NCBI GenBank assembly: GCA_965200875.1
Contig: OZ241456.1
Coordinates: 1,696,001 to 1,760,000, forward strand
From: Bdellovibrionales bacterium
GTDB taxonomy: Bacteria; Bdellovibrionota; Bdellovibrionia; Bdellovibrionales; UBA1609
Direction of reading: 5' to 3'
Length of the DNA stretch: 64,000 nucleotides
The notes beneath the pieces are model-generated. The model searched no databases, had not been told where the DNA came from, and saw only the letters and a program-made list of their open reading frames with translations. This document shows positions 11,230 to 37,472 of this stretch, one piece after another. The translations under genes and the position numbers were made by a program. Within the stretch, counting starts at the first letter, position 1. Every line of letters begins with the position of its first letter.

Positions 11230-11250
11230 ATTATCCTCAGGTGATGAAGG

Positions 11251-14864: not shown

Positions 14865-16952
14865 ATGAGTTTAAAAATAAAAAAATTTGGAAAATTCAAA
14901 TTATTAAAGCAAGTTGCCAGAGGAGGTATGGCTGAAATTTTCCTAGCTTCTTCAGGCTCTGTTGAGAGTGTGCATAAATTTGTGGTGATAAAGAGAGTAT
15001 TGCTGGCCCACTCACATAATAAAGAATTTAAGAAAATGTTTCACACCGAGGGGAAAATTGCTGTTAACCTTAATCACAGCAATATCTGCTCCATTCATGA
15101 GTTTGGAATGGTAGATGACCAGTATTTTATCTGTATGGAATATATTTCCGGTAGAAATATACGTCAGCTGGTGAAAAAATTAAAAAGCCAGAAAAAAGCT
15201 CTTGATGTGGCTTTATGCGCCTATATTATAAAACATACATGTAATGGTCTGGATTATGCTCATAATTGCACAGACAACATAACCGGTCAGCCCTTCAATA
15301 TTATCCATCGTGATATCAGTCCCCAAAATATAATGGTGAGTTTTGATGGTGATGTAAAAATCATTGATTTTGGTATAGCCAAGATAGATGACTCTGAAGC
15401 CACAAAAGTTGGAGTCTTAAAAGGAAAGTTTGAATACATGAGTCCCGAACAGGCCAGAGGCAAGCCTTTGGATCGGCAAACAGATATTTTCTCATTAGGG
15501 AATGTTTTATGGGAAATGCTTGCAGGAAGAAAATTATTTACAGGCGCCAACGAGATTCAGCTTCTAAAAAAAATCAGAGATTGTCAAATTCCGAACTTAA
15601 AAAAAATCAATCCAAATGTCCCACAAAGGCTATTGGAAATAACAAATAAAGCTTTGAGTGCGAATAAAAACTTAAGGTATAAATCCGCCGCAGAAATGGG
15701 CAGTGATATTTCCGTTTTTTTGAATAAAACTTATCCTGATTTTACACATAATAATTTTAGCAAATGTATAAAGGAAGTATATGTAGAGGAAATGTTAGAA
15801 GAAAGAAATAACCGAAAAGCTTATTCCCAGGCTTTAATGTCAAAAAAACTAAGGCCAACCAGTGGAATAATGTCTCAGTCTTTACGGAATCAGACTATTG
15901 CTCAAAGCCGATCCACTTTCATAGGGTATAAGGAGAAATTGGATAAAGATGATGAAGAGGAAAATATCGGAACAAAATACGATGACTCTCAAATTACCAT
16001 CCGAAAAGATAGTCTTTCTGTCCCGCAAAATCATACTGTTACAGAAACAGATATGGAAACATCTGCAAGCCAATCTCAGGATATTACAAGAACAGAGTTT
16101 GCAGATGAACTGGAACATAACAATGTGTCCACAGTATATACAAAATACGAACAACACTCTCAATCAGGCAAAAAACAAAAAATCTCCATGACCTCAGATG
16201 GATACAGGAATACCATTACGACTGCTACATTGAATGGCAATGGCAATGGCAATGGCAATGGCAATAGTGAAAACTCAAATGTATTATCCAATACTTATGA
16301 CCCTTTTTTAAAAGTCAAAAACTCCGATTTATCTTCTGTTTCGCAAGTTTCCACCAGACACCGGAGAACCAAACATAAAAAGAGAAACATTTTTCGAAGA
16401 ATGATAATCGGAATATTGGCTTTAGGAATGATAGGTACTGCCTACACTTTTCGGAGTAATATTAAACCGTATGTTGTTGATATACTGCAAAAGTTGGATC
16501 AGTTAATGCCTGAAGATCTAACTTTTTCACGACCTGAAAAATCTGCCTCCTCAAACCTTGATGATGCGCAATCAAAATCCAATGTTCAAAACTTGAATAA
16601 GAAGTCAGATTTTCCTTCAAACCAGAGACAGGCTTTAAAACCCACAAAAGCGGAAAGACAACCAACAGCTATTGATAATAATTTACAGAGTGTAATGGAA
16701 AAAACCGTTTTTATCAGCACAGAACCTTCCGGTGCTCATATTTTTATTAACGATAAAAATGTGAAAAGTCTTACACCAACCTCGATAGTGGTGAATGTCA
16801 ATAATACCGTTCATTTAACTCTTAAAAGAGATGGGTATAAGGATAAAAAAGTGGTTTTGTCACCTCATTCCATTAACAAAGGAACGGCACACTTTTCTTT
16901 GCTCAAAAGCAATAACAGGAAACGAAGAGATGAAACCATTATTCTTCGTTAA
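14865..16952 (+). CDS. Hanks-type Ser/Thr protein kinase with TM segment and C-terminal PEGA domain
   Basis: GGMAEIF, VVIKRV, HRDISPQN, DFG, YMSPEQ; STEPSGAHIFIN...TP...KRDGY PEGA motif. Confidence 0.93.
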   Translation: MSLKIKKFGKFKLLKQVARGGMAEIFLASSGSVESVHKFVVIKRVLLAHSHNKEFKKMFHTEGKIAVNLNHSNICSIHEFGMVDDQYFICMEYISGRNIRQLVKKLKSQKKALDVALCAYIIKHTCNGLDYAHNCTDNITGQPFNIIHRDISPQNIMVSFDGDVKIIDFGIAKIDDSEATKVGVLKGKFEYMSPEQARGKPLDRQTDIFSLGNVLWEMLAGRKLFTGANEIQLLKKIRDCQIPNLKKINPNVPQRLLEITNKALSANKNLRYKSAAEMGSDISVFLNKTYPDFTHNNFSKCIKEVYVEEMLEERNNRKAYSQALMSKKLRPTSGIMSQSLRNQTIAQSRSTFIGYKEKLDKDDEEENIGTKYDDSQITIRKDSLSVPQNHTVTETDMETSASQSQDITRTEFADELEHNNVSTVYTKYEQHSQSGKKQKISMTSDGYRNTITTATLNGNGNGNGNGNSENSNVLSNTYDPFLKVKNSDLSSVSQVSTRHRRTKHKKRNIFRRMIIGILALGMIGTAYTFRSNIKPYVVDILQKLDQLMPEDLTFSRPEKSASSNLDDAQSKSNVQNLNKKSDFPSNQRQALKPTKAERQPTAIDNNLQSVMEKTVFISTEPSGAHIFINDKNVKSLTPTSIVVNVNNTVHLTLKRDGYKDKKVVLSPHSINKGTAHFSLLKSNNRKRRDETIILR
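16233..16265 (+). repeat. (AATGGC)x5 microsatellite encoding an Asn-Gly tract in the kinase linker
   Basis: Five perfect hexamer copies plus AAT. Confidence 0.9.
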
Positions 16953-23062: not shown

Positions 23063-23572
23063 TTACCATTTAGATATCCAGCCAACAAACCAGATATTTC
23101 CAAAGAGATCATGGCAGTTACAAGGCTCTCCCACTGGTCTGATATTTGTTGCACAATAGAACACACCTTGTCGGCAGATAGCACTCCATTCCAGTGGCAC
23201 CACTGGCACTATAGGCCCTATTATAATTGGTGGGTTATAATTATGACTGTGAGGGTGGGTATGGTGGTGGTAGTGTCCACTGCAACCATCGTGACCGCCG
23301 TGGTATCTTCTACAGCTTCCATGAGCCAGCTTTATTTCTTCTTCTGTTTGTTGTTTTAATGTATCCTCTGTATTCTCGAAATACCTTGGATCATCATCTT
23401 CGTATAGCTCATCTCCCATTGTATGCAGTGGGGCAGTTTCTACAACAGCAGGCAGATTTTCTGCGTCTGTATCGTGAAATCTCACTTCCACCATGCCACC
23501 AGCTTGAGCTGGAGAGTAACCAAATTGGATATAAATCAAGGTGATAAATAAAAACAAACCGGTTTTTTTCAT
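23063..23572 (-). CDS. Hypothetical secreted His-rich, Cys-containing protein
   Basis: Signal peptide, His-rich tract, C-terminal CRQGVFYC...PCNC; AAGGAG RBS. Confidence 0.7.
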   Translation of the reverse strand: MKKTGLFLFITLIYIQFGYSPAQAGGMVEVRFHDTDAENLPAVVETAPLHTMGDELYEDDDPRYFENTEDTLKQQTEEEIKLAHGSCRRYHGGHDGCSGHYHHHTHPHSHNYNPPIIIGPIVPVVPLEWSAICRQGVFYCATNIRPVGEPCNCHDLFGNIWFVGWISKW

Positions 23573-23907: not shown

Positions 23908-24629
23908 TCAAAAAGATAGTTTTGTATTATTATCTGAATCTTTATATCGCTTTAATGCGTCTTCTGTAATATTTATATTAATTTTGCTTTCTGTTTTTTT
24001 CTTAATAGTTTTGAAAAAGTGTCGATACTTGTAATTTATTTTACAAATTAAAGTGTGTTCCCCATCCTCCATTTTAATATTGGATAAAATATCAGTGGAA
24101 TGTTTATTTAAAGCATCATTAAGAAACTTTTGTTTTTGTGATTTTTCTTTTTCAGTGCTTGTTGAAGGGGAATAAATAAACTTTTTATAATTTTCATATA
24201 ATTCTTGCCAAACTTTATTAATACTTTCTTTACTTCCTGTAATACAACATTGTATTAAAAGCTCTTTGCTTTCATCAGGTTTTAATAAAAACTCTGGGCT
24301 GGATTTTGGCAAATAAAAAGAAGCTACAGAAACTTCATTGACTGTGATTAAGAATCCAAAAGTTCTTTTAGAGGTTTATCATTTAAAGAAACTTCAGAAA
24401 CAATGCAGTTATTTTTGTCTACATAAAGTTTTTTGACCATTACATTTTCATTCCAAATTAAACTTTGAAATTTATCTTTGCTGGATAAAATATTAAGGTC
24501 TTTAATTCTTATGGGGCGATCTTCTTCTGCCGTCATAAAAATACTTCCGCTGATGATTTGGTTGACAAGCATTTTTTCTGGTTGCCTTTCAAACAAAGCA
24601 TTTAAGTTTTGTACACTTCTTGATTTCAT
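23908..24629 (-). pseudogene. Probable frameshifted orphan gene (two overlapping-frame ORFs)
   Basis: ORF 24348-24629; the frame of ORF 23908-24312 is open from ~24375, overlapping the first ORF's stop; very AT-rich. Confidence 0.45.
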
Positions 24630-25051: not shown

Positions 25052-25080
25052 TTGACTTTTCGACTATCCTCTGATATTCA
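25052..25080 (+). promoter_or_regulatory. Sigma70-like promoter motif TTGACT-N-TGATATT, repeated before every array gene (also 25571, 26047, 26645, 27265, 27861)
   Basis: TTGACTTTTYGACTATCCTCTGATATTYA conserved in all six units. Confidence 0.55.
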
Positions 25081-25089
25081 TTACTCACT

Positions 25090-25446
25090 ATGGCTACTGC
25101 TTTAATCAAACAAGTGCAATATCTTAAAGAAAATGGCTTCACAGAACAACAAGCCAATACCTTGATCTATTTCCAAAGAGATCATATTGAACATGTAATG
25201 GCCACTAAGAAAGACCTCGCTGAAGTTCACGCCAACTTAAAAAAAGATATCGAGTATGTCAAAAAAGACATCGAACAACTGCGCGCCGATACCAAAAAAG
25301 ACATCGCAGAGGTCAAAAAAGAGATCGAACTTCTGCGCACGGAAACTAAAAAAGATATGGCTCTCTTAAAAAAAGACATGATTTTAAAACTTTCTGCTAT
25401 CATGGGTAGTATGATTACCATCGCTTGTATCGTAATTAAACTTTAA
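25090..25446 (+). CDS. DUF1640/CCDC90-like coiled-coil membrane-anchored protein, copy 1 (stalk 7-11-7-11-7)
   Basis: LKENGFTEQQA head, MATKKDL neck, KDI repeats, C-terminal TM. Confidence 0.85.
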   Translation: MATALIKQVQYLKENGFTEQQANTLIYFQRDHIEHVMATKKDLAEVHANLKKDIEYVKKDIEQLRADTKKDIAEVKKEIELLRTETKKDMALLKKDMILKLSAIMGSMITIACIVIKL

Positions 25447-25457
25447 ACTAAGTGGTA

Positions 25458-25476
25458 AAAGTCAGCGACTGACTTT
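25458..25476. terminator. Hairpin AAAGTCAG-CGA-CTGACTTT after array copy 1
   Basis: Perfect 8-bp inverted repeat just downstream of the stop codon. Confidence 0.4.
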
Positions 25477-25608
25477 GACTATGTAAATTCTGCGCAGGAA
25501 AAGTCAACGACTGGTTTTTCTTGTAAAGCAACCGGTGTAACAAAACCACAACAACAGCAAAAAAATCAACTTGACTTTTCGACTATCCTCTGATATTCAT
25601 TACTCACT

Positions 25609-25950
25609 ATGGCTACTGCTTTAATCAAACAAGTGCAATATCTTAAAGAAAATGGCTTCACAGAACAACAAGCCAATACCCTGATCTATTTCCAAAGAGA
25701 TCATATTGAACATGTAATGGCCACTAAGAAAGACCTTGCTGAAGTACACGCCAACTTAAAAAAAGACATCGAGTATGTCAAAAAAGACATTGAATATCTG
25801 CGTATGGAAACTAAAAAAGATATTGAATATCTGCGCACGGAAACTAAAAAAGATATCGCAGAAATCAAAAAAGACTTGATACTAAAACTTTCAGTGATTA
25901 TGGGAAGTATGATTACCATTGCGGGGGTTCTCTTAGGATTCCTGAATTAA
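25609..25950 (+). CDS. DUF1640/CCDC90-like protein, copy 2 (stalk 7-11-11-7)
   Basis: Same head and neck; anchor LSVIMGSMITIAGVLLGFLN. Confidence 0.85.
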   Translation: MATALIKQVQYLKENGFTEQQANTLIYFQRDHIEHVMATKKDLAEVHANLKKDIEYVKKDIEYLRMETKKDIEYLRTETKKDIAEIKKDLILKLSVIMGSMITIAGVLLGFLN

Positions 25951-26119
25951 ACTTTAATCTGATTGATAAACAACTGGCTTTTGTTCTAAAACAACATCTA
26001 AAAACCTCTAAAAAATGGGTAACAAAACCACAGCAAAAAAATCAACTTGACTTTTTGACTATCCTCTGATATTTATTTGCTTGTATCGTAATTAAACTTT
26101 AAACTAAGTGGGAAAATCT

Positions 26120-26548
26120 ATGAGTCAAGCTTTAATCAAACAAGTGCAATATCTCAAAGAAAATGGCTTCACAGAACAACAAGCCAATACCCTGATCTAT
26201 TTCCAAAGAGATCATATTGAACATGTAATGGCCACTAAGAAAGACCTCGCTGAAGTACACGCCAACTTAAAAAAAGACATCGAGTATGTCAAAAAAGACA
26301 TTGAATATCTGCGTACGGAAACTAAAAAAGACATTGAATATCTGCGTACGGAAACTAAAAAAGACATTGAATATCTGCGTACGGAAACTAAAAAAGATAT
26401 CGCAGAAATCAAAAAAGATATTGAATATCTGCGCACGGAAACTAAAAAAGATATCGCAGAAATCAAAAAAGACTTGATACTAAAACTTTCAGTGATTATG
26501 GGAAGTATGATTACCATTGCGGGGGTTCTCTTAGGATTCCTGAATTAA
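26120..26548 (+). CDS. DUF1640/CCDC90-like protein, copy 3 (stalk 7-11-11-11-7-11-7)
   Basis: As above; ATG start MSQALIK aligned with copies 1-2. Confidence 0.85.
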   Translation: MSQALIKQVQYLKENGFTEQQANTLIYFQRDHIEHVMATKKDLAEVHANLKKDIEYVKKDIEYLRTETKKDIEYLRTETKKDIEYLRTETKKDIAEIKKDIEYLRTETKKDIAEIKKDLILKLSVIMGSMITIAGVLLGFLN

Positions 26549-26717
26549 ACTTTAATCTGATTGATAAACAACTGGCTTTTGTTCTAAAACAACATCTAAA
26601 AACCTCTAAAAAATGGGTAACAAAACCACAGCAAAAAAATCAACTTGACTTTTCGACTATCCTCTGATATTCATTTGCTTGTATCGTAATTAAACTTTAA
26701 ACTAAGTGGGAAAATCT

Positions 26718-27167
26718 ATGAGTCAAGCTTTAATCAAACAAGTGCAATATCTTAAAGAAAATGGCTTCACAGAACAACAAGCCAATACCCTGATCTATTT
26801 CCAAAGAGATCATATTGAACATGTAATGGCCACCAAGAAAGACTTAGCTGAAGTTCACGCCAACTTAAAAAAAGACATCGAGTATGTCAAAAAAGACATC
26901 GAACAACTGCGCGCCGATACCAAAAAAGATATCGCAGAGGTCAAAAAAGACATTGAATATCTCCGTACGGAAACTAAAAAAGATATTGAATATCTGCGTA
27001 CGGAAACTAAAAAAGATATCGCAGAAATCAAAAAAGACATTGAATATCTGCGCACGGAAACTAAAAAAGATATCGCAGAAATCAAAAAAGACTTGATACT
27101 AAAACTTTCAGTGATTATGGGAAGTATGATTACCATTGCGGGGGTTCTCTTAGGATTCCTGAATTAA
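26718..27167 (+). CDS. DUF1640/CCDC90-like protein, copy 4 (stalk 7-11-7-11-11-7-11-7)
   Basis: As above. Confidence 0.85.
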   Translation: MSQALIKQVQYLKENGFTEQQANTLIYFQRDHIEHVMATKKDLAEVHANLKKDIEYVKKDIEQLRADTKKDIAEVKKDIEYLRTETKKDIEYLRTETKKDIAEIKKDIEYLRTETKKDIAEIKKDLILKLSVIMGSMITIAGVLLGFLN

Positions 27168-27356
27168 ACTTTAATCTGATTGATAAACAACTGGCTTTTG
27201 TTCTAAAACAACATCTAAAAACCTCTAAAGAATGGGTAATAAAATCACAACAATAAAAACCAACTTGACTTTTTGACTATCCTCTGATATTTATTTGCTT
27301 GTATCGTAATTAAACTTTAAACTAAGTATTAAACTTTAAACTAAGTGGGAAAATCT

Positions 27357-27764
27357 ATGAGTCAAGCTTTAATCAAACAAGTGCAATATCTTAAAGAAAA
27401 TGGCTTCACAGAACAACAAGCCAATACCCTGATCTATTTCCAAAGAGATCATATCGAACATGTAATGGCCACTAAGAAAGACCTCGCTGAAGTACACGCC
27501 AACTTAAAAAAAGACATCGAGTATGTCAAAAAAGACATTGAATATCTGCGTACGGAAACTAAAAAAGACATCGAACTTCTGCGCACGGAAACTAAAAAAG
27601 ACATTGAATATCTGCGCACGGAAACTAAAAAAGATATTGAATATCTGCGCACGGAAACTAAAAAAGATATCGCAGAAATCAAAAAAGACTTGATACTAAA
27701 ACTTTCAGTGATTATGGGAAGTATGATTACCATTGCGGGGGTTCTCTTAGGATTCCTGAATTAA
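27357..27764 (+). CDS. DUF1640/CCDC90-like protein, copy 5 (stalk 7-11-11-11-11-7)
   Basis: As above. Confidence 0.85.
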   Translation: MSQALIKQVQYLKENGFTEQQANTLIYFQRDHIEHVMATKKDLAEVHANLKKDIEYVKKDIEYLRTETKKDIELLRTETKKDIEYLRTETKKDIEYLRTETKKDIAEIKKDLILKLSVIMGSMITIAGVLLGFLN

Positions 27765-27933
27765 ACTTTAATCTGATTGATAAACAACTGGCTTTTGTTC
27801 TAAAACAACATCTAAAAACCTCTAAAAAATGGGTAACAAAACCACAGCAAAAAAATCAACTTGACTTTTCGACTATCCTCTGATATTCATTTGCTTGTAT
27901 CGTAATTAAACTTTAAACTAAGTGGGAAAATCT

Positions 27934-28404
27934 ATGAGTCAAGCTTTAATCAAACAAGTGCAATATCTTAAAGAAAATGGCTTCACAGAACAACAAGCCA
28001 ATACCCTGATCTATTTCCAAAGAGATCATATTGAACATGTAATGGCCACCAAGAAAGACTTAGCTGAAGTTCACGCCAACTTAAAAAAAGACATCGAGTA
28101 TGTCAAAAAAGACATCGAACAACTGCGCGCCGATACCAAAAAAGATATCGCAGAGGTCAAAAAAGACATTGAATATGTTAAAAAAGATATCGAACTTCTG
28201 CGCACGGAAACTAAAAAAGACATTGAATATCTGCGCACGGAAACTAAAAAAGATATCGCAGAAATCAAAAAAGACATTGAATATCTGCGCACGGAAACTA
28301 AAAAAGATATCGCAGAAATCAAAAAAGACTTGATACTAAAACTTTCAGTGATTATGGGAAGTATGATTACCATTGCGGGAGTTCTCTTAGGATTCCTGAA
28401 TTAA
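27934..28404 (+). CDS. DUF1640/CCDC90-like protein, copy 6 (stalk 7-11-7-7-11-11-7-11-7)
   Basis: As above. Confidence 0.85.
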   Translation: MSQALIKQVQYLKENGFTEQQANTLIYFQRDHIEHVMATKKDLAEVHANLKKDIEYVKKDIEQLRADTKKDIAEVKKDIEYVKKDIELLRTETKKDIEYLRTETKKDIAEIKKDIEYLRTETKKDIAEIKKDLILKLSVIMGSMITIAGVLLGFLN

Positions 28405-28471
28405 ACTTTAATCTGATTGATAAACAACTGGCTTTTGTTCTAAAACAACATCTAAAAACCTCTAAAAAACG

Positions 28472-28502
28472 AAAAAACCCGTCTGAGATAGACAGGCTTT
28501 TT
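28472..28502. terminator. Putative bidirectional intrinsic terminator
   Basis: AAAAAACCCGTCT-GAGAT-AGACAGGCTTTTT imperfect hairpin flanked by A/T runs between convergent genes. Confidence 0.55.
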
Positions 28503-28542
28503 CACAACAATGGAATTTATAAAATAAGAACAAAAATAAAGC

Positions 28543-29202
28543 TTATTGCCAGACAAAACCACTTACATCTTGTGAGATTAAATAATACCCCAAGGCGCTG
28601 TCTACTTTCGCACCTTTTAAATTCGCCCCTCGAAAATTCGTTTCTTTAACCTTCGCCCCGCGCAAATCCGCACCTTGCAAATTCGCATTACTAAAATTTG
28701 CACCGGTCAAATCCGTATTACTCAAATCTGCTCCACTCAAATTCGCATTACTAAAATTTATCCCTTGCAAAACCACACCACTATAATTTACCCCGCTCAA
28801 ATCCCTACCGCTAAAATCACCACCTGCTCCCGTGTCAGCACCTGCTCCTGTGTCAGCACCTGCTCCCGTGTCAGCTCCAGGTTGAACACCTGCTCCCGTG
28901 TCAGCACCTGCTCCTGTGTCAGCACCTGCTCCCGTGTCAGCTCCAGGTTGAACACCTGCTCCCGTGTCAGCACCAGGTTGAACACCTGCTCCCGTGTCAG
29001 CACCTGCTCCTGTGTCAGCACCTGCTCCCGTGTCAGCACCAGGTTGAACACCTGCTCCCGTGTCAGCACCAGGTTGAACACCTGCTCCGGCGGTGTTCGC
29101 ACCAGCTTCCGGCTGATTTTCTGCACCACTCGAACCAGTGTCTTTTTTCTCACAACCTAAAAAACATAAGCTTAAAAATAATAAAACAATTATAGTTTTC
29201 AT
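28543..29202 (-). CDS. Lipoprotein with Gly/Ala repeat linker and C-terminal pentapeptide repeats
   Basis: FLGC lipobox; AGVQPGADTG/AGADTG repeats; ANLSGADLSNTDLTGANFS pentapeptides. Confidence 0.88.
   Translation of the reverse strand: MKTIIVLLFLSLCFLGCEKKDTGSSGAENQPEAGANTAGAGVQPGADTGAGVQPGADTGAGADTGAGADTGAGVQPGADTGAGVQPGADTGAGADTGAGADTGAGVQPGADTGAGADTGAGADTGAGGDFSGRDLSGVNYSGVVLQGINFSNANLSGADLSNTDLTGANFSNANLQGADLRGAKVKETNFRGANLKGAKVDSALGYYLISQDVSGFVWQ
28821..29087 (-). repeat. Mixed 30-bp/18-bp coding tandem repeat
   Basis: CACCTGCTCCCGTGTCAG-type units interspersed with CCAGGTTGAA-containing units. Confidence 0.9.
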
Positions 29203-29310: not shown

Positions 29311-30624
29311 TTAAAAGAAATCGGCAAAACCGCCAGCAGAACAGTCGTTATAATTGGAGTCATCTTTTTCCAAATCATTTTCATATTCACTCAACATCTC
29401 CCATAACTTATCATTATGATCATCGTCAGGTTCTTTTGCACAATCGTGTCCTTTATCATCATCACTGCAAGCATTTTGCCAAGCGGTCCAACACATAAGC
29501 GTGCGTGCGCAACCCGCTGATCTGTCATCTGCATTTTCTACATCATTACAAACATTTTGTAAAAGCCCGAAAGCCAGATCAAATATATGTTCGTTTCCAT
29601 CACCTTCTTCAGCAGAATAAGCAAATATATTCCGTACACCCATATCCTCTCCGTGCATACAGGAAAGAGCGTTAAAAAGCTCTTTATCTCTTGTGGAAGA
29701 TAATTGAATTGTACCATCAGCTGACGAACCTTTATGATATCTAACTTTTATGTTATTAGCATTAGCTTCAAGTATCCAAATTCTCCTATTTGTACGCTTA
29801 TCAGCAGAATTAATAAGATCATTTTCATGACTATAACTATTCCCTCCTAGGCAAAGCTTATCATCATGATCAGGAACATTCTCATTCTCATGTGTAAATT
29901 TCAGATCCCCAGCCAAAGTCAAAAGCAAGGCTTCCAAAATATCATCTCCTTCATTTATGTCATCCTTTAAGATCTCTGCTGATTCTGCATCATCCTCCAC
30001 TAACCACTTAATGGTTTTTAACAACCGACTTCTTTTTACAGTATCAGTATCACCAGACGATGGCCCCAAGCCTGCCTTAATTTGTGTGATCCATTTTGTA
30101 ACACCAATTTGCACATAACATTTAAAATCGTCTCTGCTCACTCCATCATCATCATCGTCACCAATGTTATTCAGATCATCCTCCACTACTGCGGCAGATC
30201 TTGTTTTTTCGTTGCCCGTACCGGCTTTTCTTCCCATAAGGAGATCGTGAACTTTTTCCAGTTTACCTACTGTTTCGTCTCCTCTGTTCATGCAGAGTCT
30301 TTTTTCTTCAAATTCCTCGTAAATGCTTTCGCAAATCTCCTCGCAGGTTTCATTGCCTTTGCAAAGATCACCTTCGTCATCCTCACACTCTTCAGCTTCG
30401 TTATCATCGTCATCATCATCACTATCATCGTCATCGTCATCATCGTTGTTATTGCTATTTGTGCTAGCCTGATTCGTGGAATTTTGACTATCAAAAGCAG
30501 AACAGGAAACAAAAGAAGAACTGGCCATAGCCATCGTGACCATAAGGCTTAGGAAAAGCCATAAACGATTTTTTAACAAAGAAATTACAGGTCTAACCAT
30601 CACTATTTTTTTTAATAAATTCAT
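29311..30624 (-). CDS. Hypothetical Asp-rich, Cys-rich (lipo)protein
   Basis: Hydrophobic N-terminus with FVSC, poly-Asp tract, many Cys; start codon uncertain. Confidence 0.75.
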   Translation of the reverse strand: MNLLKKIVMVRPVISLLKNRLWLFLSLMVTMAMASSSFVSCSAFDSQNSTNQASTNSNNNDDDDDDDSDDDDDDNEAEECEDDEGDLCKGNETCEEICESIYEEFEEKRLCMNRGDETVGKLEKVHDLLMGRKAGTGNEKTRSAAVVEDDLNNIGDDDDDGVSRDDFKCYVQIGVTKWITQIKAGLGPSSGDTDTVKRSRLLKTIKWLVEDDAESAEILKDDINEGDDILEALLLTLAGDLKFTHENENVPDHDDKLCLGGNSYSHENDLINSADKRTNRRIWILEANANNIKVRYHKGSSADGTIQLSSTRDKELFNALSCMHGEDMGVRNIFAYSAEEGDGNEHIFDLAFGLLQNVCNDVENADDRSAGCARTLMCWTAWQNACSDDDKGHDCAKEPDDDHNDKLWEMLSEYENDLEKDDSNYNDCSAGGFADFF

Positions 30625-30924: not shown

Positions 30925-31899
30925 TTAGAGCTTTAAGCTTTCCTGTAGCTCTTTAATTTTCTCTGCTGATACACCAGTGATTTCAATGATATCAGAAATC
31001 TGCATATTTTTTTTGAGCATATTCAAAGCTATTTGTTCCATGCCTGTCTTCAAGCCTTTTTGCATGCCTTGTTCTATGCCTTCTTCTCGGCCTTTGTTAA
31101 AGGCATAAGCTTTCTCTGCACGCTGATCTCTTAAAAACTTCTCTCGTGCTTCCTCTTCTCGGCGCAAATCCTCATCCTGGGACAAATCTTTTAAATGTTC
31201 CATTGCTCTTCTCATCTCTTCCCCCTTACTCGTTGATAATATATCCCACTCTCTTTTTCCTATGTGGCAGGACTCTTTTAAAAGATAGCACCATAAGTCC
31301 CGCAAATCAACTATCTCCTTCAGACTCTCTGGCCTCGCTCTCATAAACTTACTTAATTCCACAAACACTATCTTTTCATCATCGATCAAGGAAGAATGTG
31401 GCTCTTTATCCGATCGCAAAGAAAAGGAATTGATAAAATCTCTATATTTTTTTACCGGAAGAACATCAAAGTCTGTGAAAATCAAGGAATATGCAGGGCA
31501 AATACTGCTGTAATCTGCTGACTTCTTTAAACTCTCCGTGTAAAGTCTAGACCAATAAAAAAGCACTCTTTTCAAAAAACCTATTTTTAAGACAGACTGT
31601 ATTTCCACATTCACAGTTTCTCCGGTACTGAGTCTTATTCTCAAATCCAGAACAATTTGCTTGTTGTCTGCCAAAGAGGGATAAAGGGAGCTATCTAAGA
31701 GAGTTAATGTTTCTTCATCAACAAGGGAATCCAATGCTTTTTTATCTCCTATGAAGGATATATCTTGCACTTTTTGATTGGGAGGAAGAGGCAAAAAGGC
31801 ATTTAAAAGAGATTTCAGGACTTCTTTGTTTTTAGAGAAATAGGTCTTGAACATGAGGTCCTGGCTTAAGTTTAAAAATTTGCTACGATTTGTTTTCAT
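30925..31899 (-). CDS. Rpn family recombination-promoting nuclease / PD-(D/E)XK putative transposase
   Basis: DLMFKTYF, LDLRI...VNVEIQ, RVLFYWSRLY, FVELSKF, GREEGIEQG...IALNMLKK...IIEITGVS; GGAG RBS supports ATG 31899. Confidence 0.92.
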   Translation of the reverse strand: MKTNRSKFLNLSQDLMFKTYFSKNKEVLKSLLNAFLPLPPNQKVQDISFIGDKKALDSLVDEETLTLLDSSLYPSLADNKQIVLDLRIRLSTGETVNVEIQSVLKIGFLKRVLFYWSRLYTESLKKSADYSSICPAYSLIFTDFDVLPVKKYRDFINSFSLRSDKEPHSSLIDDEKIVFVELSKFMRARPESLKEIVDLRDLWCYLLKESCHIGKREWDILSTSKGEEMRRAMEHLKDLSQDEDLRREEEAREKFLRDQRAEKAYAFNKGREEGIEQGMQKGLKTGMEQIALNMLKKNMQISDIIEITGVSAEKIKELQESLKL

Positions 31900-31945
31900 G
31901 GTAAAGCTCCTTTGAAAAGGTGGTTTATTGTTAATAAATAGTTCA

Positions 31946-31962
31946 TGCAAAATCCGTGCCAA
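31946..31962 (-). promoter_or_regulatory. Sigma-54 -24/-12 promoter (proximal)
   Basis: Minus strand TTGGCACGGATTTTGCA matches consensus TTGGCACG-N4-TTGC. Confidence 0.75.
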
Positions 31963-32310: not shown

Positions 32311-33393
32311 ATGGAAATAATCAATCCTGTAGTACAGACAATACATAACAATCCCAACGGGTTTATTATAGTTGTTTTTATAATCATGGTCTTTTTTGCC
32401 ATCTTGGAATTTAGGAACAATGCTGAACAAGCTGAACAAAAAGACTTTAAGCCCCTTATTATCAGTTTGGGAATATTAGGCACTTTTATAGGGATATTTT
32501 GCGGGCTTTGGAACTTTGATACAAAAGATATTTCTAAAAGTGTGCCGACACTTCTGGAAGGCTTGAAATTGGCTTTTGTGACATCCATCTTGGGTATGCT
32601 TATTGCCATAGTTCTCTCTGTTATTGAAAACTTTAAAAAACAAGACCCTAAAGAAACCCCAGAGATTTTAAAAGCCATTTTAAATGAGCAAAAAGTGGCC
32701 AATAAAAATAACACTTTGATATTCAGTGCCATTACACACTTAACCGGCGAAACTAGCAGTCAATTACAAGAACTAAACATATCCTTAAAAAAAGCTTTAC
32801 ACAATCTTTCCAAGGGAGCTACAGAGGAAATTATCCGAGCTTTAAAGAGTGTTATTGCCGACTTTAATAGAAACTTAACGGAACAATTTGGTGATAATTT
32901 TAAACAGCTGAATGAATCTGTAAAGAATATGATTATATGGCAGGAAAACTATAAAAAAGCGATAGAACAGATAGAGAAAAATCTGCAACAAGCAGTGGAG
33001 AATATCGGAAAAACCGCTGACTACACAAAACAGTTTACAGAATATTACGAAAAAATATCTCATATCAGCAGTGATTTGCAAAGAATTCTTAAAACTAACG
33101 AAAATCAAATCAAAAATATAGAAAAACACTTGGAAAATTTAAGAAAAACTGGAGAGGAGATGCGTTTGATAACAATTTCCACAAATGATTTTTCAAAAAC
33201 GATACAAAGCTCCCTTTCTGAACAATCTGCGGGCTTAAATCGTTTAAGCGAGGAGCTAACCAAACAGCTGGAAAGTGCCTTGGGCAATCTTAACCGCGCA
33301 CTCACTACCCTGACTGAAAAATTTGAAAAGGACTATAAGAGTTATTTGGAACATTTTAAGGATCTTTTGGATAAACTAAATTACAAAAAATAA
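32311..33393 (+). CDS. zorA: ZorA-like protein (MotA/TolQ/ExbB channel plus coiled-coil tail)
   Basis: SLGILGTFIGIFCGLWNFD...LLEGLKLAFVTSILG; DFNRNLTEQFGDNFKQLNESV...WQENYK tail. Confidence 0.8.
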   Translation: MEIINPVVQTIHNNPNGFIIVVFIIMVFFAILEFRNNAEQAEQKDFKPLIISLGILGTFIGIFCGLWNFDTKDISKSVPTLLEGLKLAFVTSILGMLIAIVLSVIENFKKQDPKETPEILKAILNEQKVANKNNTLIFSAITHLTGETSSQLQELNISLKKALHNLSKGATEEIIRALKSVIADFNRNLTEQFGDNFKQLNESVKNMIIWQENYKKAIEQIEKNLQQAVENIGKTADYTKQFTEYYEKISHISSDLQRILKTNENQIKNIEKHLENLRKTGEEMRLITISTNDFSKTIQSSLSEQSAGLNRLSEELTKQLESALGNLNRALTTLTEKFEKDYKSYLEHFKDLLDKLNYKK

Positions 33394-33492
33394 TGAATTA
33401 GTGCAAAACCTTAAACTGAAGATCAAGAACAGGAAATATGCTGAGCATATTGCTGAGTTAAGCGGGTTTATTCAGAATTGGTTAAATAAAAA

Positions 33493-34344
33493 ATGACTAT
33501 CAAATTAAATCAATTTTATGATCTTTTGGAAGCTTTGCGAAAGTTTGGCATTACAAACTTTTCGGCCCTAGAAATTGAAAAGGAAAAAAAACAATTTGAG
33601 ACATACGGGCTGGATACAGATATATCAGATGTATTCCCAACCAATAGCGGAGAGTTATTTGTTGTTTTAAAAGATGGTTCTATTGGAAAAGCTGTCATTC
33701 ATATTGTGGATATGTCCACTTGGCCCTCTAAGTGGGGATATCCTAGGTTTCATATTTGGGACTGTAAAAAGTTAACAGAAATGCGGGTGAATAAAAAGTA
33801 CCACAGATACAAGGCTACCAGTCAAAAAACCGGAAAGTTTTATTTGATTAACAAAGAAAGAAAATGGTATGAGTCTCTTGAAATATGTTCTTATTGTCTT
33901 ACGCTTTATAACAAGCGTTTTAAAACAAACTGTACAAAACAAAATTTTCTTCTGAAGGAATATATCGAAAAACCTTTAAACTCTTCAGGTTTTTTGAAGG
34001 TACAGTGGGATATTTGTACTGTGCCCAATACTTATACAGAGAGCTGGCCTGCGATATCCGAGGAAATGAAAAAAAGAGCAAAATATATATGTACCTTATG
34101 CTGGAAAGATCTTTCTCGTCCTCAATGTAAAAAATTCCTACACACACATCATATTAACGCTGATAAAAAAAACAATACCAGTGGAAACTTACAAGTTCTT
34201 TGCATAAAGTGTCATTCCAAAGAGCACAATCACGAACACATAAAATTCAGCAAAATGTATAAAGAATATTTAAACAGCGTTTGCTCTGAATGCCAATGCT
34301 CCAAAAATACCAATAAAATAAAGCTTGGAGGGTTAAAACCATGA
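33493..34344 (+). CDS. HNH endonuclease (ZorE-like effector) with additional N-terminal domain
   Basis: CTLC...LHTHHINADKKNNTSGNLQVLCIKCHSKEH; N-terminal RFHIWDC and CSYC; ATGA overlap with zorB. Confidence 0.82.
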   Translation: MTIKLNQFYDLLEALRKFGITNFSALEIEKEKKQFETYGLDTDISDVFPTNSGELFVVLKDGSIGKAVIHIVDMSTWPSKWGYPRFHIWDCKKLTEMRVNKKYHRYKATSQKTGKFYLINKERKWYESLEICSYCLTLYNKRFKTNCTKQNFLLKEYIEKPLNSSGFLKVQWDICTVPNTYTESWPAISEEMKKRAKYICTLCWKDLSRPQCKKFLHTHHINADKKNNTSGNLQVLCIKCHSKEHNHEHIKFSKMYKEYLNSVCSECQCSKNTNKIKLGGLKP

Positions 34345-35057
34345 AATCCACAAAAGAATGGATCAGTATCTCTGATATGATGACAGGGTTGATGATGGTT
34401 TTTCTGTTTATCTCCATTCTTTATATGAGTCAGGTTGAGAAGCAAAGTAAAGAAATTAAAGAAATAAATATAGAAATTCAGGAGATAGCCACAGGGTATA
34501 AAGATTATAAAAGTGTTATTTATAAAGAGCTTAATAAAGAATTTCAAGTAGATCTTAAGAGATGGAATGCGAAAATCCTTGAAGATTCTTTAGTGATAAG
34601 GTTTTTATCCTTCAACATTATGTTTAAAGCGGGTAGCAGTATAGTAGAACCTGCATTTCAAAAAATTTTGGAGGATTTTTGTCCAAGATATTTTAAACTG
34701 CTTTACAGTTTGAAACAAAATATAGAAGAAATCAGAATAGAAGGTCATACATCATCAGAGTGGGGAAAACTACCACCAAAATCTGCCTACTTCAAAAATA
34801 TGAAATTATCACAAAACAGAACAAGATCTGTTTTACAATATTGTGTAACTCTAAAAAATGTGGAAAAAGAGATTAATGAATGGGCTAGAAAAAAACTGAC
34901 AGCCAATGGACTCTCCTCCAGCCGGCCTCTGAAAAAATGCAAACAAGATACTATAAGACATCGCTCTTGTAACCGAAGAGTGGAATTTCGCATTCAGATA
35001 GATGAATCCAGTATATTGCGTAAAATAATACAAATCTTTAAAAAGGTATCTCTATGA
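34341..35057 (+). CDS. zorB: ZorB-like OmpA/MotB family protein
   Basis: WISISDMMTGLMMVFLFI (conserved Asp), IRIEGHTS, LSQNRTRSV, NRRVEFRI. Confidence 0.85.
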   Translation: MKSTKEWISISDMMTGLMMVFLFISILYMSQVEKQSKEIKEINIEIQEIATGYKDYKSVIYKELNKEFQVDLKRWNAKILEDSLVIRFLSFNIMFKAGSSIVEPAFQKILEDFCPRYFKLLYSLKQNIEEIRIEGHTSSEWGKLPPKSAYFKNMKLSQNRTRSVLQYCVTLKNVEKEINEWARKKLTANGLSSSRPLKKCKQDTIRHRSCNRRVEFRIQIDESSILRKIIQIFKKVSL

Positions 35058-35138
35058 TTCAAATCAAAGGAGTCACATTGACTTTTTTGCAAAGTACTGA
35101 TACAAAACTGATACATATAAATATTCATTCCAAAGTTT

Positions 35139-37472
35139 ATGAAAACCGGAGTTTTTAAAAGCACTATGGTTGAAGATCAAACAAACAAGCCAGAAATTTT
35201 AAAACATTATCGTCTGACTCAAAAAGAGTATCAGCTTATCGAAAAATCTTTAGGGCACACACCATCTCGTTTGGAGTTAGCCTTGTTTTCTGCTTTGTGG
35301 AGCGAGCATTGTTCCTACAAAAGTTCAGCTGTTCATTTAAAAAAACTGTTTTTTGATTCTCCCAAAGTATTAAGTGCTTTAGGAGAAAACGCAGGAGTGG
35401 TGGATATAGGCAGAGGGGAAAAAGTAGCTTTTAAAGTGGAAAGCCACAATCACCCTTCCCGCATTACCCCTTATCATGGAGCTTCCACAGGCGTGGGGGG
35501 GATTTTACGAGATGTTTTTGTTATGAACGCCCGACCTGTGGCACTGGCCAACTACCTCTGTTTTGGAGAGTCCTCTGCAAAACAAAGAGAGGAGTTATTG
35601 GATGGAGTGGTACAAGGGATTGGCGGTTATGGAAACTCCATTGGCATTCCCACCGTGACCGGACAAACAGAGTTTGATTCCTCTTATAACGAAAATATCG
35701 TGGTAAACGCTTTGGCCCTTGGTTATTTTGGTTCTCAAGAGGAAGTGATGCGCTCCCAAGCGAAAGGCCCTCAGAATTTATTGGTATATGCGGGAGCGCG
35801 TACAGGTAGAGATGGTATTCACGGCGCGTCTATGGCCAGTGAATCCTTTAGCGGAGAACAAAAAGAAGATAAGAAAACCTGCGTACAGATAGGGGATCCT
35901 TTTTATGGAAAACTTTTAATGGAAGCCTGTCTGGAGGTGATGAAAAAATCTCTGGTTATTTCCGCTCAGGATATGGGTGCAGCGGGTTTAACCAGCTCTT
36001 CTTTTGAAATGATCTCCAAAGGAGGGTTGGGGATGCGACTTTTTTTGGATCAAGTGCCTTTAAGGGATTTCAGTATGACAGCGGAAGAAATTTTACTTTC
36101 GGAAAGTCAGGAAAGAGTTTTGTTGGTGGTTCATCCTGATAAATATGAAGAGCTGGAGAAGGTTTTTACCAAGTGGGGGTTACCGATTTCCGTGATAGGG
36201 AAACTAAAAAAAGAGCGGGAAGTAGAGTTACTTTGGAAAGAAAAACTTTTGCTTAAAATCAACCCTGAGCTTATAGAAAAAACCCCTCGTTATAATCGTT
36301 CGTATCACAGATGGAAATCAAAACATAAGACAAAAACAATAGAAAAATATATGTTTCCGGCTGGGAAAAGTTTATCTGCTGTTTTGCTTTCTTTGTTAAA
36401 AGATGAAAGAGGCAACAGCCGAAAGTTTATATACAAGCAGTATGACCAAAGAGTGAAAGCGAGCACAGTTTGGGATTGCTCCTTTCCTTTTGGTGTGATT
36501 CGTTTGCCAGAGTCTGGCAGGGCCTTGGCTGTGTGTATGGGAGGAAGACCTCATATTATGAGAATGGACAGCCTAGAAGGTGGAAAAGACGCAGTTTATG
36601 AACCGGCTTTAAAGCTATCCGGCATGGGTTTCACCCCTTTGGCCTTAACAGATGGCCTTAACTTTGGATCTCCGAAAAAAAAAGAAGTGATGAGTTCTTT
36701 CGTGGCTTGCGTGGAGGGAATGGCATCGGCCAGCCGTTCTTTGGAAACCCCCATAGTGAGTGGCAATGTGAGTTTTTACAACGAAACACGAGGAAAAAGC
36801 ATCAGCCCCACACCTATTACTGGTATGATCGGTATTAGAGATTCCATGAAAGGTCTTTTTAAAAATACTGATGGGAAACACCGGCAAAAACAGGTATCAA
36901 AAATCTTAAGCCAAGAAAATACAAGCCCAAAAAAAGCTTTATACCTTGTGAGTGCTCATCAAATTTTTTGTAGTGGTTTAGTTGGTGAAGTTTATAAACA
37001 AAAGCCTCGCTTTTACGGATCTTTGGATTCTGAAGTCTGTCGGAAGTTTATTCATCTCATTTTAAAAGCTGGGGCTGTAGCTCCTCCCTGTTATATTCGG
37101 CTTGTGGGAAAATTTGGGCTAGCTTATGCCCTATCTCGTATAGCAATAGATCCTTTTTTTCATTCAGCTTTAGAAGAAAACAATTTTTCAAATGGATCTG
37201 GCATGGCTATCAACACAAATTATGACCTTTTTCAGGAAAGGCTTTATGAGTTTTTGTTGGTGCTAAATGAGGCGGATATTCCGGTTTGGAGAAAGTATTT
37301 TTCTTTGGGCAATCCGCCACCACCTACCGACAAAGAAAAAAACTCTCCTCCTCACTGGCCCTTTAAAATGGAAAAACTGGGCACTGTCATCAATCAGCCT
37401 TTACTTTCTTTTAATAAAGACATTGTTTTATCTGTTTCTGAACTGAAAACAGCTTATCTTCAACGTTCATAA
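35139..37472 (+). CDS. purL: Phosphoribosylformylglycinamidine synthase subunit PurL
   Basis: WSEHCSYKSS, KVESHNHPS, DMGAAGL, LLSESQER, SGNVSFYNET. Confidence 0.95.
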   Translation: MKTGVFKSTMVEDQTNKPEILKHYRLTQKEYQLIEKSLGHTPSRLELALFSALWSEHCSYKSSAVHLKKLFFDSPKVLSALGENAGVVDIGRGEKVAFKVESHNHPSRITPYHGASTGVGGILRDVFVMNARPVALANYLCFGESSAKQREELLDGVVQGIGGYGNSIGIPTVTGQTEFDSSYNENIVVNALALGYFGSQEEVMRSQAKGPQNLLVYAGARTGRDGIHGASMASESFSGEQKEDKKTCVQIGDPFYGKLLMEACLEVMKKSLVISAQDMGAAGLTSSSFEMISKGGLGMRLFLDQVPLRDFSMTAEEILLSESQERVLLVVHPDKYEELEKVFTKWGLPISVIGKLKKEREVELLWKEKLLLKINPELIEKTPRYNRSYHRWKSKHKTKTIEKYMFPAGKSLSAVLLSLLKDERGNSRKFIYKQYDQRVKASTVWDCSFPFGVIRLPESGRALAVCMGGRPHIMRMDSLEGGKDAVYEPALKLSGMGFTPLALTDGLNFGSPKKKEVMSSFVACVEGMASASRSLETPIVSGNVSFYNETRGKSISPTPITGMIGIRDSMKGLFKNTDGKHRQKQVSKILSQENTSPKKALYLVSAHQIFCSGLVGEVYKQKPRFYGSLDSEVCRKFIHLILKAGAVAPPCYIRLVGKFGLAYALSRIAIDPFFHSALEENNFSNGSGMAINTNYDLFQERLYEFLLVLNEADIPVWRKYFSLGNPPPPTDKEKNSPPHWPFKMEKLGTVINQPLLSFNKDIVLSVSELKTAYLQRS

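Follow-up and report, generated by a model that had tools for sequence, protein, structure and literature searches.

The CCDC90-like family (PF07798, formerly DUF1640) is conserved from bacteria to human mitochondria, and its mitochondrial roles are still debated. In a review that summarises Adlakha 2019 (PMC8224590), the head of MCUR1 is described as binding the N-terminal domain of MCU, with stalk length crucial for the interaction, and a study of the yeast members Put6 and Put7 describes them as matrix-facing and as forming a large complex (PMC7519068). According to Hartmann et al. (PMC4786415), the start of the DUF1640 stalk carries a beta-layer motif, [aliphatic]-A-T-K-[polar]-[DE]. Two solved structures of the family, 6h9l (titled 'uncharacterized protein') and 6h9m (human CCDC90B), contain three chains each. 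No bacterial partner or function was found in the DUF1640/PF07798/CCDC90-like literature surveyed, which consisted of partial texts and did not include Adlakha et al. 2019, a paper that possibly covers prokaryotic paralogues and stalk periodicity. A second family of similar plan, the Bdr proteins of Borrelia, was reported to be inner-membrane associated and of unknown function (PMC10016077). Here we describe a tandem array of six DUF1640/CCDC90-like genes in a 64,000-nucleotide window from a Bdellovibrionales bacterium (assembly GCA_965200875.1, contig OZ241456.1, positions 1,696,001 to 1,760,000; coordinates below are those of the window unless a contig is named). The array is a lineage-specific tandem expansion within this known family, with unusually clean modular stalks.

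The open reading frames of the window include six intact genes in tandem on the + strand, at 25090-28404, whose proteins have a head, a neck and a membrane anchor in common and stalks that all differ in length. The head consists of 37 almost invariant residues, reading MATALIKQVQYLKENGFTEQQANTLIYFQRDHIEHVM in copies 1 and 2 and beginning with MSQ in copies 3-6, and is followed in all six by the motif A-T-K-K-D, the stalk and a hydrophobic tail of 20-25 residues. Copies 1 (25090-25446) and 2 (25609-25950) encode 118 and 113 amino acids. For copies 3-6, frames beginning at GTG codons (26108, 26706, 27345 and 27922; 146, 153, 139 and 160 amino acids) most likely start four codons early, and the true starts would be the ATG codons at 26120, 26718, 27357 and 27934, because the public gene calls identical to copies 4, 6 and 3 have 149, 156 and 142 amino acids. 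Copy 3 then spans 26120-26548 (142 amino acids), copy 4 26718-27167 (149), copy 5 27357-27764 (135) and copy 6 27934-28404 (156). The spacers between the copies measure 162, 157, 157, 177 and 157 bp in order. The original prediction, made from the sequence without database searches, had described six intact tandem genes with a common head, neck and anchor and a variant anchor in copy 1, a description that the reading frames and their alignment bear out.

The stalks of the six copies are composed of heptads of the form KKDIxxV/I (21 bp) and hendecads of the form KKDIExLRxxT (33 bp), with no other module, and every module starts with the same word, AAAAAAGA. Tandem Repeats Finder detected repeat periods of 21, 33, 54 and 87 bp in the array and, within copy 3, three perfect 33-bp repeats (26291-26397; 3.2 copies, 100%). 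An independent parse reproduced exactly the module strings first reported for copies 1 to 6 (7-11-7-11-7; 7-11-11-7; 7-11-11-11-7-11-7; 7-11-7-11-11-7-11-7; 7-11-11-11-11-7; 7-11-7-7-11-11-7-11-7) and the corresponding stalk lengths of 43, 36, 65, 72, 58 and 79 residues, confirming that earlier observation in every detail, including its count of 2 or 4 hendecads per copy. The segment KKDLAEVHANL, which had been assigned to the neck, is itself an in-register hendecad; when it is counted as the first, the strings become 11-7-11-7-11-7, 11-7-11-11-7, 11-7-11-11-11-7-11-7, 11-7-11-7-11-11-7-11-7, 11-7-11-11-11-11-7 and 11-7-11-7-7-11-11-7-11-7, and each copy has 3 or 5 hendecads. Measured from the T of ATK to the membrane helix, the stalks comprise 62, 55, 84, 91, 77 and 98 residues.

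This modular construction extends beyond the array. Core spacings were only 7 or 11 in all 25 parsed family genes (107 heptads and 101 hendecads), which belong to a single genus: ten in the source genome (G000), eight in G009, four in G003 and three in G005, the parsed set not including the weaker hits seen in G008 and, at 852 kb and 280 kb, in G009. Internal stop codons were not found in any family match of the genus genomes. Stalk length changes by module blocks in distant relatives too, because two near-identical metagenome homologues from a distant branch differ by a single 29-residue block. At 0.148 nm per residue, the predicted stalks would be ~8 to 14.5 nm long in the array and 2 to 22.5 nm in the whole family. 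Modules of either size should keep the core register, with I at a, L/V at d and T at h, so that every product can still fold.

Membership in the DUF1640/CCDC90-like family, as originally claimed, is borne out by Pfam matches of all six copies to PF07798 (E values of 4.2e-6, 1.3e-5, 3.4e-8, 2.3e-9, 2e-7 and 3.1e-9 for copies 1 to 6) and by a profile of 18 family members that matched the trimer 6h9l at E 3e-14 over neck and stalk. Copies 3, 4 and 6 (34.0, 37.8 and 37.3 bits) exceed the 33.5-bit cut-off of the family, the three shortest copies score 25.6-31.5 bits, and the public gene calls carry precomputed PF07798 labels. The neck reads V-M-A-T-K-K-D in every copy, which fits the beta-layer motif; the same profile matched human CCDC90B (6h9m) over the head, at E 0.055. 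In an AlphaFold2 monomer model of copy 2 (mean predicted local distance difference test, pLDDT, of 86.4), helices span residues 2-14, 19-36 and 40-112, with a break at residues 37-39 (ATK), and the top Foldseek match in the PDB was the CCDC90B head, 6h9m_A, with a probability of 0.97 but an E value of 0.11 and template modelling (TM) scores of 0.46/0.54. The helix 40-112 is continuous in the model, and the sequences carry the 7/11 core pattern and end in 20-25 hydrophobic residues.

Three chains of copy 2 modelled as a homotrimer scored 0.68, against 0.00 for the best control; 20 of 30 solved pairs attained the mark, as did 1 of 23 single chains. The three runs agreed in at least 95% of contacts with a partner pLDDT of at least 83, and the contacts were parallel and in register (57-57, 61-61, 64-64, 68-68 and 72-72), falling on I (a), L/V (d) and T (h). 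Because trimers of this family have already been solved, the score may reflect memory of, or likeness to, those structures and is no proof of assembly. Each copy is thus predicted to form a tail-anchored parallel homotrimer with a two-helix head, a beta-layer neck, a coiled-coil stalk and a C-terminal membrane helix, and both models support the head-neck-stalk-anchor anatomy proposed from the sequence. The array sequences contain no signal peptide; their N-termini are hydrophilic and the final 20-25 residues are the only hydrophobic stretch. Because of these two features, we infer that the head is probably cytoplasmic and the protein situated on the cytoplasmic face of the inner membrane.

A promoter-like unit precedes every copy, consisting of TTGACT, 17 nt and a -10 hexamer, TATTCA or TATTTA, that has a TG two bases ahead of it. 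The units lie on the + strand at 25052-25080 (copy 1, with TATTCA), 25571-25599 (copy 2), 26047-26075 (copy 3), 26645-26673 (copy 4), 27265-27293 (copy 5) and 27861-27889 (copy 6). The ATG follows 9 nt after the unit in copies 1 and 2 and 44 nt after it in copy 3, and overall 44-63 nt separate the -10 hexamer from the ATG in copies 3-6; the leader of copy 5 contains an extra direct duplication, a 19-bp unit present twice (27309-27346). Leaderless mRNAs are predicted for copies 1 and 2, for the four family genes dispersed elsewhere in the genome and for most genes of G009 and G003, because there the ATG lies 9-10 nt after the -10 element; before two adjacent G003 genes the motif was not evident. 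A simple consensus promoter scan did not list the array units, because their -10 hexamer matches only 3 of 6 positions. Searched as a regular expression, the motif TTGAYTTT...TGATAY has ten sites in the genome, nine of them upstream of family genes, and the tenth paralogue carries it with variant spacing. The remaining site is an orphan at ~35078-35110 (+), TTGACTTTT...TGATACAAA, 32 nt before the ATG of a purL-like gene (35139-37472), and may be what is left of a lost paralogue, or else a promoter that was captured. The sole terminator-like hairpin at the locus (28469-28505, both strands) lies between copy 6 and a convergent pentapeptide-repeat gene.

Comparison of the copies at the DNA level points to a recent origin. 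Identity over the first 150 nt is 94-100% among the six. Copies 2-6 also agree to 99-100% over their last 84 nt and the 62 nt that follow, the tail of copy 1 being different, and the regions upstream of copies 3, 4 and 6 are 98-100% identical. By head DNA the closest pairs are copies 1 and 2 (98%), 3 and 5 (99%) and 4 and 6 (100%), with a net difference of seven residues in each pair. The 45 modules fall into 21 DNA variants spread as a mosaic over the copies: variant 3 (EQLRADT) recurs unchanged in copies 1, 4 and 6, variant 18 is shared by copies 4, 5 and 6, and copy 3 contains variant 13 in three successive modules, copy 5 in a single one. These flank and head identities and the shared variants support the proposal that the stalks vary by recombination, in the form of recombination or slippage. 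We suggest that the array grew by recent tandem duplication, and that stalk lengths then diverged by replication slippage and unequal exchange at the common module starts, with heptad-sized steps the most frequent, presumably since the repeat distance that they cross is the shortest. Because the module variants form a mosaic and the three closest pairs lie seven residues apart, the series of heptad steps would reflect recent duplication with gain and loss of modules. The explanation that we consider best, and on balance probable, is therefore a tandem array of a known family, made of units with their own promoter-like elements and encoding predicted tail-anchored homotrimers, in which the variety of lengths is rather a tolerated by-product of a fast-changing repeat.

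The host genome comprises 1.87 Mb on two contigs with 37% G+C, and its 1.83-Mb contig carries the array, in the interval from ddl/ftsZ to purL. The stretch is present in sequencing runs that include sponge metagenomes, and the bacterium is sponge-associated. Ten family members were found in this genome, six in the array and four dispersed. The shortest, of 75 amino acids (C1:24794-25021, +), has only the head, neck, one heptad and the anchor, and directly follows an Eco57I/MmeI-like type IIG restriction-modification gene; the other three, at 348 kb (206 amino acids), 463 kb (173) and 793 kb (167) of C1, occupy settings at thyA-folA/dapD, inside an acyl-CoA carboxylase operon and by a cytochrome oxidase subunit. 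The duplicated unit consists of promoter and reading frame, and the dispersed copies are alike only from promoter to stop codon. Carriage by a mobile element was considered and rejected, as the similarity of the dispersed copies ends at these borders and no terminal repeats were seen there. Phage origin was likewise rejected, with no tblastn match in 50,697 phage records. Against 72,556 plasmids, copy 6 gave tblastn matches in five records at 30-33% identity, from Arsenophonus, Methylocapsa and Aliivibrio and none from Borrelia.

Within the genus, copy 2 as query detected the family in 3 of 14 other genomes, and PF07798 in 5 of 15 including the source genome. Of 301 genomes sampled evenly across the phylum, 37 gave matches, mostly 1-5 each, with 12 and 9 in two genomes of one genus and one apiece in the one-contig genomes G163 and G191; such matches are not equivalent to copy numbers. 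The one-contig genome G009 contains a five-gene array broken by other genes, together with three dispersed copies that were parsed, while G003 has four copies, two of them adjacent, and G005 has three. A metagenome scan yielded 17 distant loci at 29-45% identity, in one of which a simple filter recognised a family gene; none of the seven loci read by eye contained a further array, all seven being single genes. Elsewhere in the source genome, a gene at C1:355335-355898 (-) encodes a protein that opens with a hydrophobic helix and continues in repeats of 18 and 11 residues (KKDLSNYITDTNKKIDDS / RIDTNKKIDDL); its topology is the reverse of that of the DUF1640 genes, and its repeats resemble KID repeats.

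Upstream of the array lie the end of a division cluster (ftsZ, ftsA, ddl), a His-rich secreted protein gene (23063-23572, -; 169 amino acids with a signal-peptide-like start, the segment HYHHHTHPHSH and no Pfam match) and two small - strand genes of 134 and 93 amino acids (23908-24629), transcribed away from copy 1. Downstream, on the - strand, follow a pentapeptide-repeat lipoprotein-like gene (28543-29202) with its own 30/66/96-bp repeats encoding G-A-G-A-D-T / G-V-Q-P-G-A-D-T, a single-copy gene for an acidic, Cys-rich protein of 437 amino acids (29311-30624; a hydrophobic N-terminal stretch, long acidic runs and no Pfam match) and a PDDEXK_2 transposase-like gene (30925-31962) with four more copies in the genome at 91-97% identity and several at ~37%. 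By tblastn the pentapeptide-repeat gene has several dozen related stretches in the genome, a large expansion for 1.87 Mb. A Zorya type II operon identified by PADLOC (32311-35057, +) begins 3.9 kb downstream of the array, in the order A-E-B and followed by purL: zorA (ZorA2, 32311-33393, E 2.6e-64), zorE (ZorE2, 33493-34344, E 2.6e-42) and zorB (ZorB2, 34341-35057, E 1.1e-80), all on the + strand. Farther upstream, a UvrD-like helicase and a PD-(D/E)XK nuclease (9010-14151) look like AddAB repair genes, and their PADLOC matches to GajB and Cas4 reflect shared folds. Near the division genes, a Hanks-type Ser/Thr kinase of 695 amino acids (14865-16952, +) matched PADLOC PD-T4-6 models with E values down to 3.3e-64 and may be a housekeeping kinase.

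The array of G009 is set differently on the chromosome, with folD, gcvT and tuf beside it. It has nonetheless retained homologues of the 93-aa gene (84% identity), of the 134-aa gene, the two standing as the same pair divergent to its last array gene, and of the acidic protein (55% identity), which lies inside the array, and it is also flanked by a fragment of the PDDEXK_2 family. The 93-aa gene is present in G010 and G011, in which PF07798 was not found, lies far from the family genes in G003 and was not found in G005, a family-bearing genome. With the exception of the PDDEXK_2 gene, the flanking genes are single-copy in the source genome and absent from the four dispersed loci. The 93-aa, 134-aa, 437-aa and PDDEXK_2 genes were each considered as a conserved partner and rejected, and because the neighbours neither track the family nor occur at the dispersed loci, the family genes stand alone.

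The original prediction went further and read the array as a repertoire presenting one head at graded distances from the membrane, as a ruler, decoy or sensor set. The six lengths are indeed distinct, but the steps follow the lineages of duplication: the two length groups (36 and 43 against 58-79 residues) coincide with copies 1-2, leaderless and starting with MAT, and copies 3-6, with a leader and an MSQ start, so that the rule of 2 or 4 hendecads is a trait of descent. Comparing module strings in related genomes, another part of that proposal, revealed no equal lengths within a genome and no internal stops, but the sorted gaps of the G009 array are 7, 7, 11 and 3, and the series is repeated there only in part. 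In our view a selected ruler set is less likely than a variety of lengths that is tolerated as the by-product of a repeat in rapid change. Several points weigh against this preference. The topology, the trimer state, a partner and the expression of the genes are all predicted; the family is patchy in the genus (5 of 15 genomes), which implies a dispensable role. In the array 4 of 5 sorted gaps equal one heptad (36, 43 and 58, 65, 72, 79), a regularity of at least 4 of 5 gaps that arose in 0.7% of 200,000 simulations with module numbers fixed and types drawn independently (P ~0.007), although the copies are recent duplicates and not independent. No stalk length recurs among the ten genes of G000 or among the eight parsed in G009, and over all the within-genome pairs 0 of 82 are equal, against 5 of 218 between-genome pairs; at the latter rate 1.9 would be expected within genomes, which gives a crude, non-significant P of ~0.15 for none. 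Eight of the 11 array genes of G000 and G009 have exactly five hendecads while heptads vary from 1 to 5, and copies 4 and 6 differ in length with heads that are 100% identical. These patterns fit selection for distinct lengths and fast slippage equally well, and leave room for selection on length.

A selected ladder would consist of otherwise identical trimers with distinct stalks, holding one head at graded heights for partners or a layered zone, and the length differences would force self-sorting into homotrimers. The same length patterns speak for it, namely that the six array copies and all ten genome paralogues differ in length, that four of five sorted array gaps equal one heptad, that copies with fully identical heads and flanks still differ in their stalks, and that five hendecads are kept in eight of the 11 array genes, as does the stalk-length dependence reported for MCUR1 (PMC8224590). 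The coincidence of length groups with lineages, the irregular G009 gaps and the non-significant deficit of equal lengths within genomes speak against it, and it presupposes a partner and expression of the copies; we judge it unlikely, though worth keeping in view. A more elaborate form, to which we give slightly less credence still, is a genome-encoded length series in which the two register-preserving modules recombine, selection keeps the lengths distinct and self-sorting homotrimers hold their identical heads as discrete layers at depths of 2 to 22 nm below the inner membrane; if true, it would provide natural molecular rulers organising sub-membrane space. An altogether different possibility is that the assembler expanded a single or a few repeat-bearing genes. 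Logan contigs of four runs were used as a read check, and no read or contig spanned the array in any of these runs, the repeats being long enough to break short-read graphs. In run X1, which may be the sample from which the genome was assembled, word depth was 17-19 in single-copy flanks and 18.5 in a copy-1-specific piece, against 47-76 (2.5 to 4 times flank depth) in pieces common to the copies, which have 1-3 exact copies in the assembly; these depths favour a multi-copy locus without fixing the number at six. In X3, a run from a different study, some joints suggest that related strains may have other module orders or fewer copies, but their sides of <30 nt make them unreliable. Over-expansion is unlikely because of the depth in X1 and the private differences between copies (21 module variants, the unequal spacers and the tail of copy 1), and with the source genome in just two contigs and a five-gene array of the same family in one-contig G009 we consider an artefact the least probable of all the explanations weighed here. 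That the genes form part of a defence island, as a membrane-anchored sensor or decoy working with, or like, Zorya, draws on the Zorya type II genes downstream, on the 75-aa paralogue adjoining a restriction-modification gene, on the homologues of the 93-aa gene in G010 that lie beside DNA methyltransferase-like and N6-methylase-like reading frames (judged by eye from translations) and on the patchiness of the family. The closeness to defence genes first noted thus holds at this locus, but the link is not conserved at the dispersed loci or at the G009 array, around which Pfam found no Zorya-like genes (PADLOC was not run there or at the dispersed loci); three of the four dispersed paralogues stand in housekeeping contexts, the proteins are without an enzymatic or effector domain, the phage records gave no match, and in PADLOC-DB 2.0 the two copies tested matched defence models only weakly (LeoC at E 3.2e-5 and 3.6e-4, JetA at 2.7e-4 and PDC-M09A at 5.9e-4). 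The defence reading thus has little support, and we think it very improbable. The same small chance is given to an outward-facing, Bdr-like family, with head and stalk in the periplasm and repeat changes as variation seen by host or phages: the plan is the same (a short G-F-S/T-E head, 18-residue repeats, a C-terminal helix and many paralogues of varied length), BLASTP of copy 6 against one Bdr, run as a single comparison, gave E 6e-7 with the alignment mostly in the repeats, and two of six Bdr proteins have sub-threshold PF07798 matches (E 9.6e-6 and 3.1e-4, over stalk and anchor). The array proteins have no signal peptide and a hydrophilic N-terminus, however, the eukaryotic relatives face the matrix (PMC7519068), coiled-coil composition inflates pairwise scores, and the profiles of the heads align with a probability of 7% (below).

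Returning to the array as a family expansion with a tolerated variety of lengths, the likeliest role of its products would be that of a cytoplasmic, membrane-anchored scaffold: by analogy with MCUR1/CCDC90B and Put6/Put7, the head would bind a partner and the stalk would set its distance from the membrane. Whatever the role, the array is a natural experiment in which head and anchor are near constant and two modules yield six stalk lengths, with four more elsewhere in the genome, and it makes testable whether stalk length sets function and whether trimers sort by length. It also offers a clear example, in DNA, of how coiled-coil modules of 7 and 11 residues are gained, lost and exchanged. Should the lengths vary by drift alone, the array would be an ordinary, lineage-specific expansion of a gene family in a bacterium that lives with a host; the ruler reading is a minority possibility.

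Compared with the described CCDC90-like proteins (MCUR1, CCDC90B, Put6/Put7, 6h9l and 6h9m), the array proteins have a comparable predicted head, the same A-T-K-x-D neck, hendecad-bearing stalk and C-terminal membrane helix, and a trimer that is predicted here and solved for 6h9l and 6h9m. They differ in number, with ten paralogues in 1.87 Mb and six of them in tandem, in stalks that are strict strings of two module types below near-identical heads, and in the lack of a targeting peptide or first membrane helix; the known partners of the described proteins (MCU, proline metabolism) are mitochondrial. To the Bdr proteins, which the original prediction called to mind, the array is similar in its many paralogues per genome, repeat regions of varied length with an 18-residue (7+11) periodicity, and a short N-terminal head with a G-F-S/T-E turn (G-F-S-E in cp32-1 Bdr) combined with a C-terminal membrane helix. 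Bdr genes, however, are carried by cp32 prophage-plasmids and linear plasmids, with 519 plasmid records of which all but four are Borrelia or Borreliella, whereas the array is chromosomal and tandem, and the neck of the cp32-1 type Bdr is without the A-T-K motif. The KID repeat (PF02524) was the top Pfam match in three of six Bdr proteins tested (including cp32-1) and second in one, and was not listed for the Bdr of Borrelia sp. RT5S and B. miyamotoi; PF07798 was not listed for cp32-1 Bdr. For the six array proteins PF02524 was not listed at E values up to 0.1 (for copy 4, among the best 25 of 26 families). An alignment of 18 DUF1640 heads with 7 Bdr heads by hhalign gave a probability of 7.1% over 16 columns, and a B. 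miyamotoi protein is given as 'DUF1640 domain-containing' in a proteomics table (PMC6856195). Homology to Bdr is not supported by the head comparison or by a KID repeat match; the resemblance first noticed is real as architecture, though it may not reflect common descent. Lpp (Braun's lipoprotein) and the tail of ZorA in Zorya are membrane-linked coiled coils whose length fixes a functionally important distance. Both are single genes of one fixed length, not a set of paralogues, and have no sequence relation to the array proteins; the ruler reading would need the same distance-setting here.

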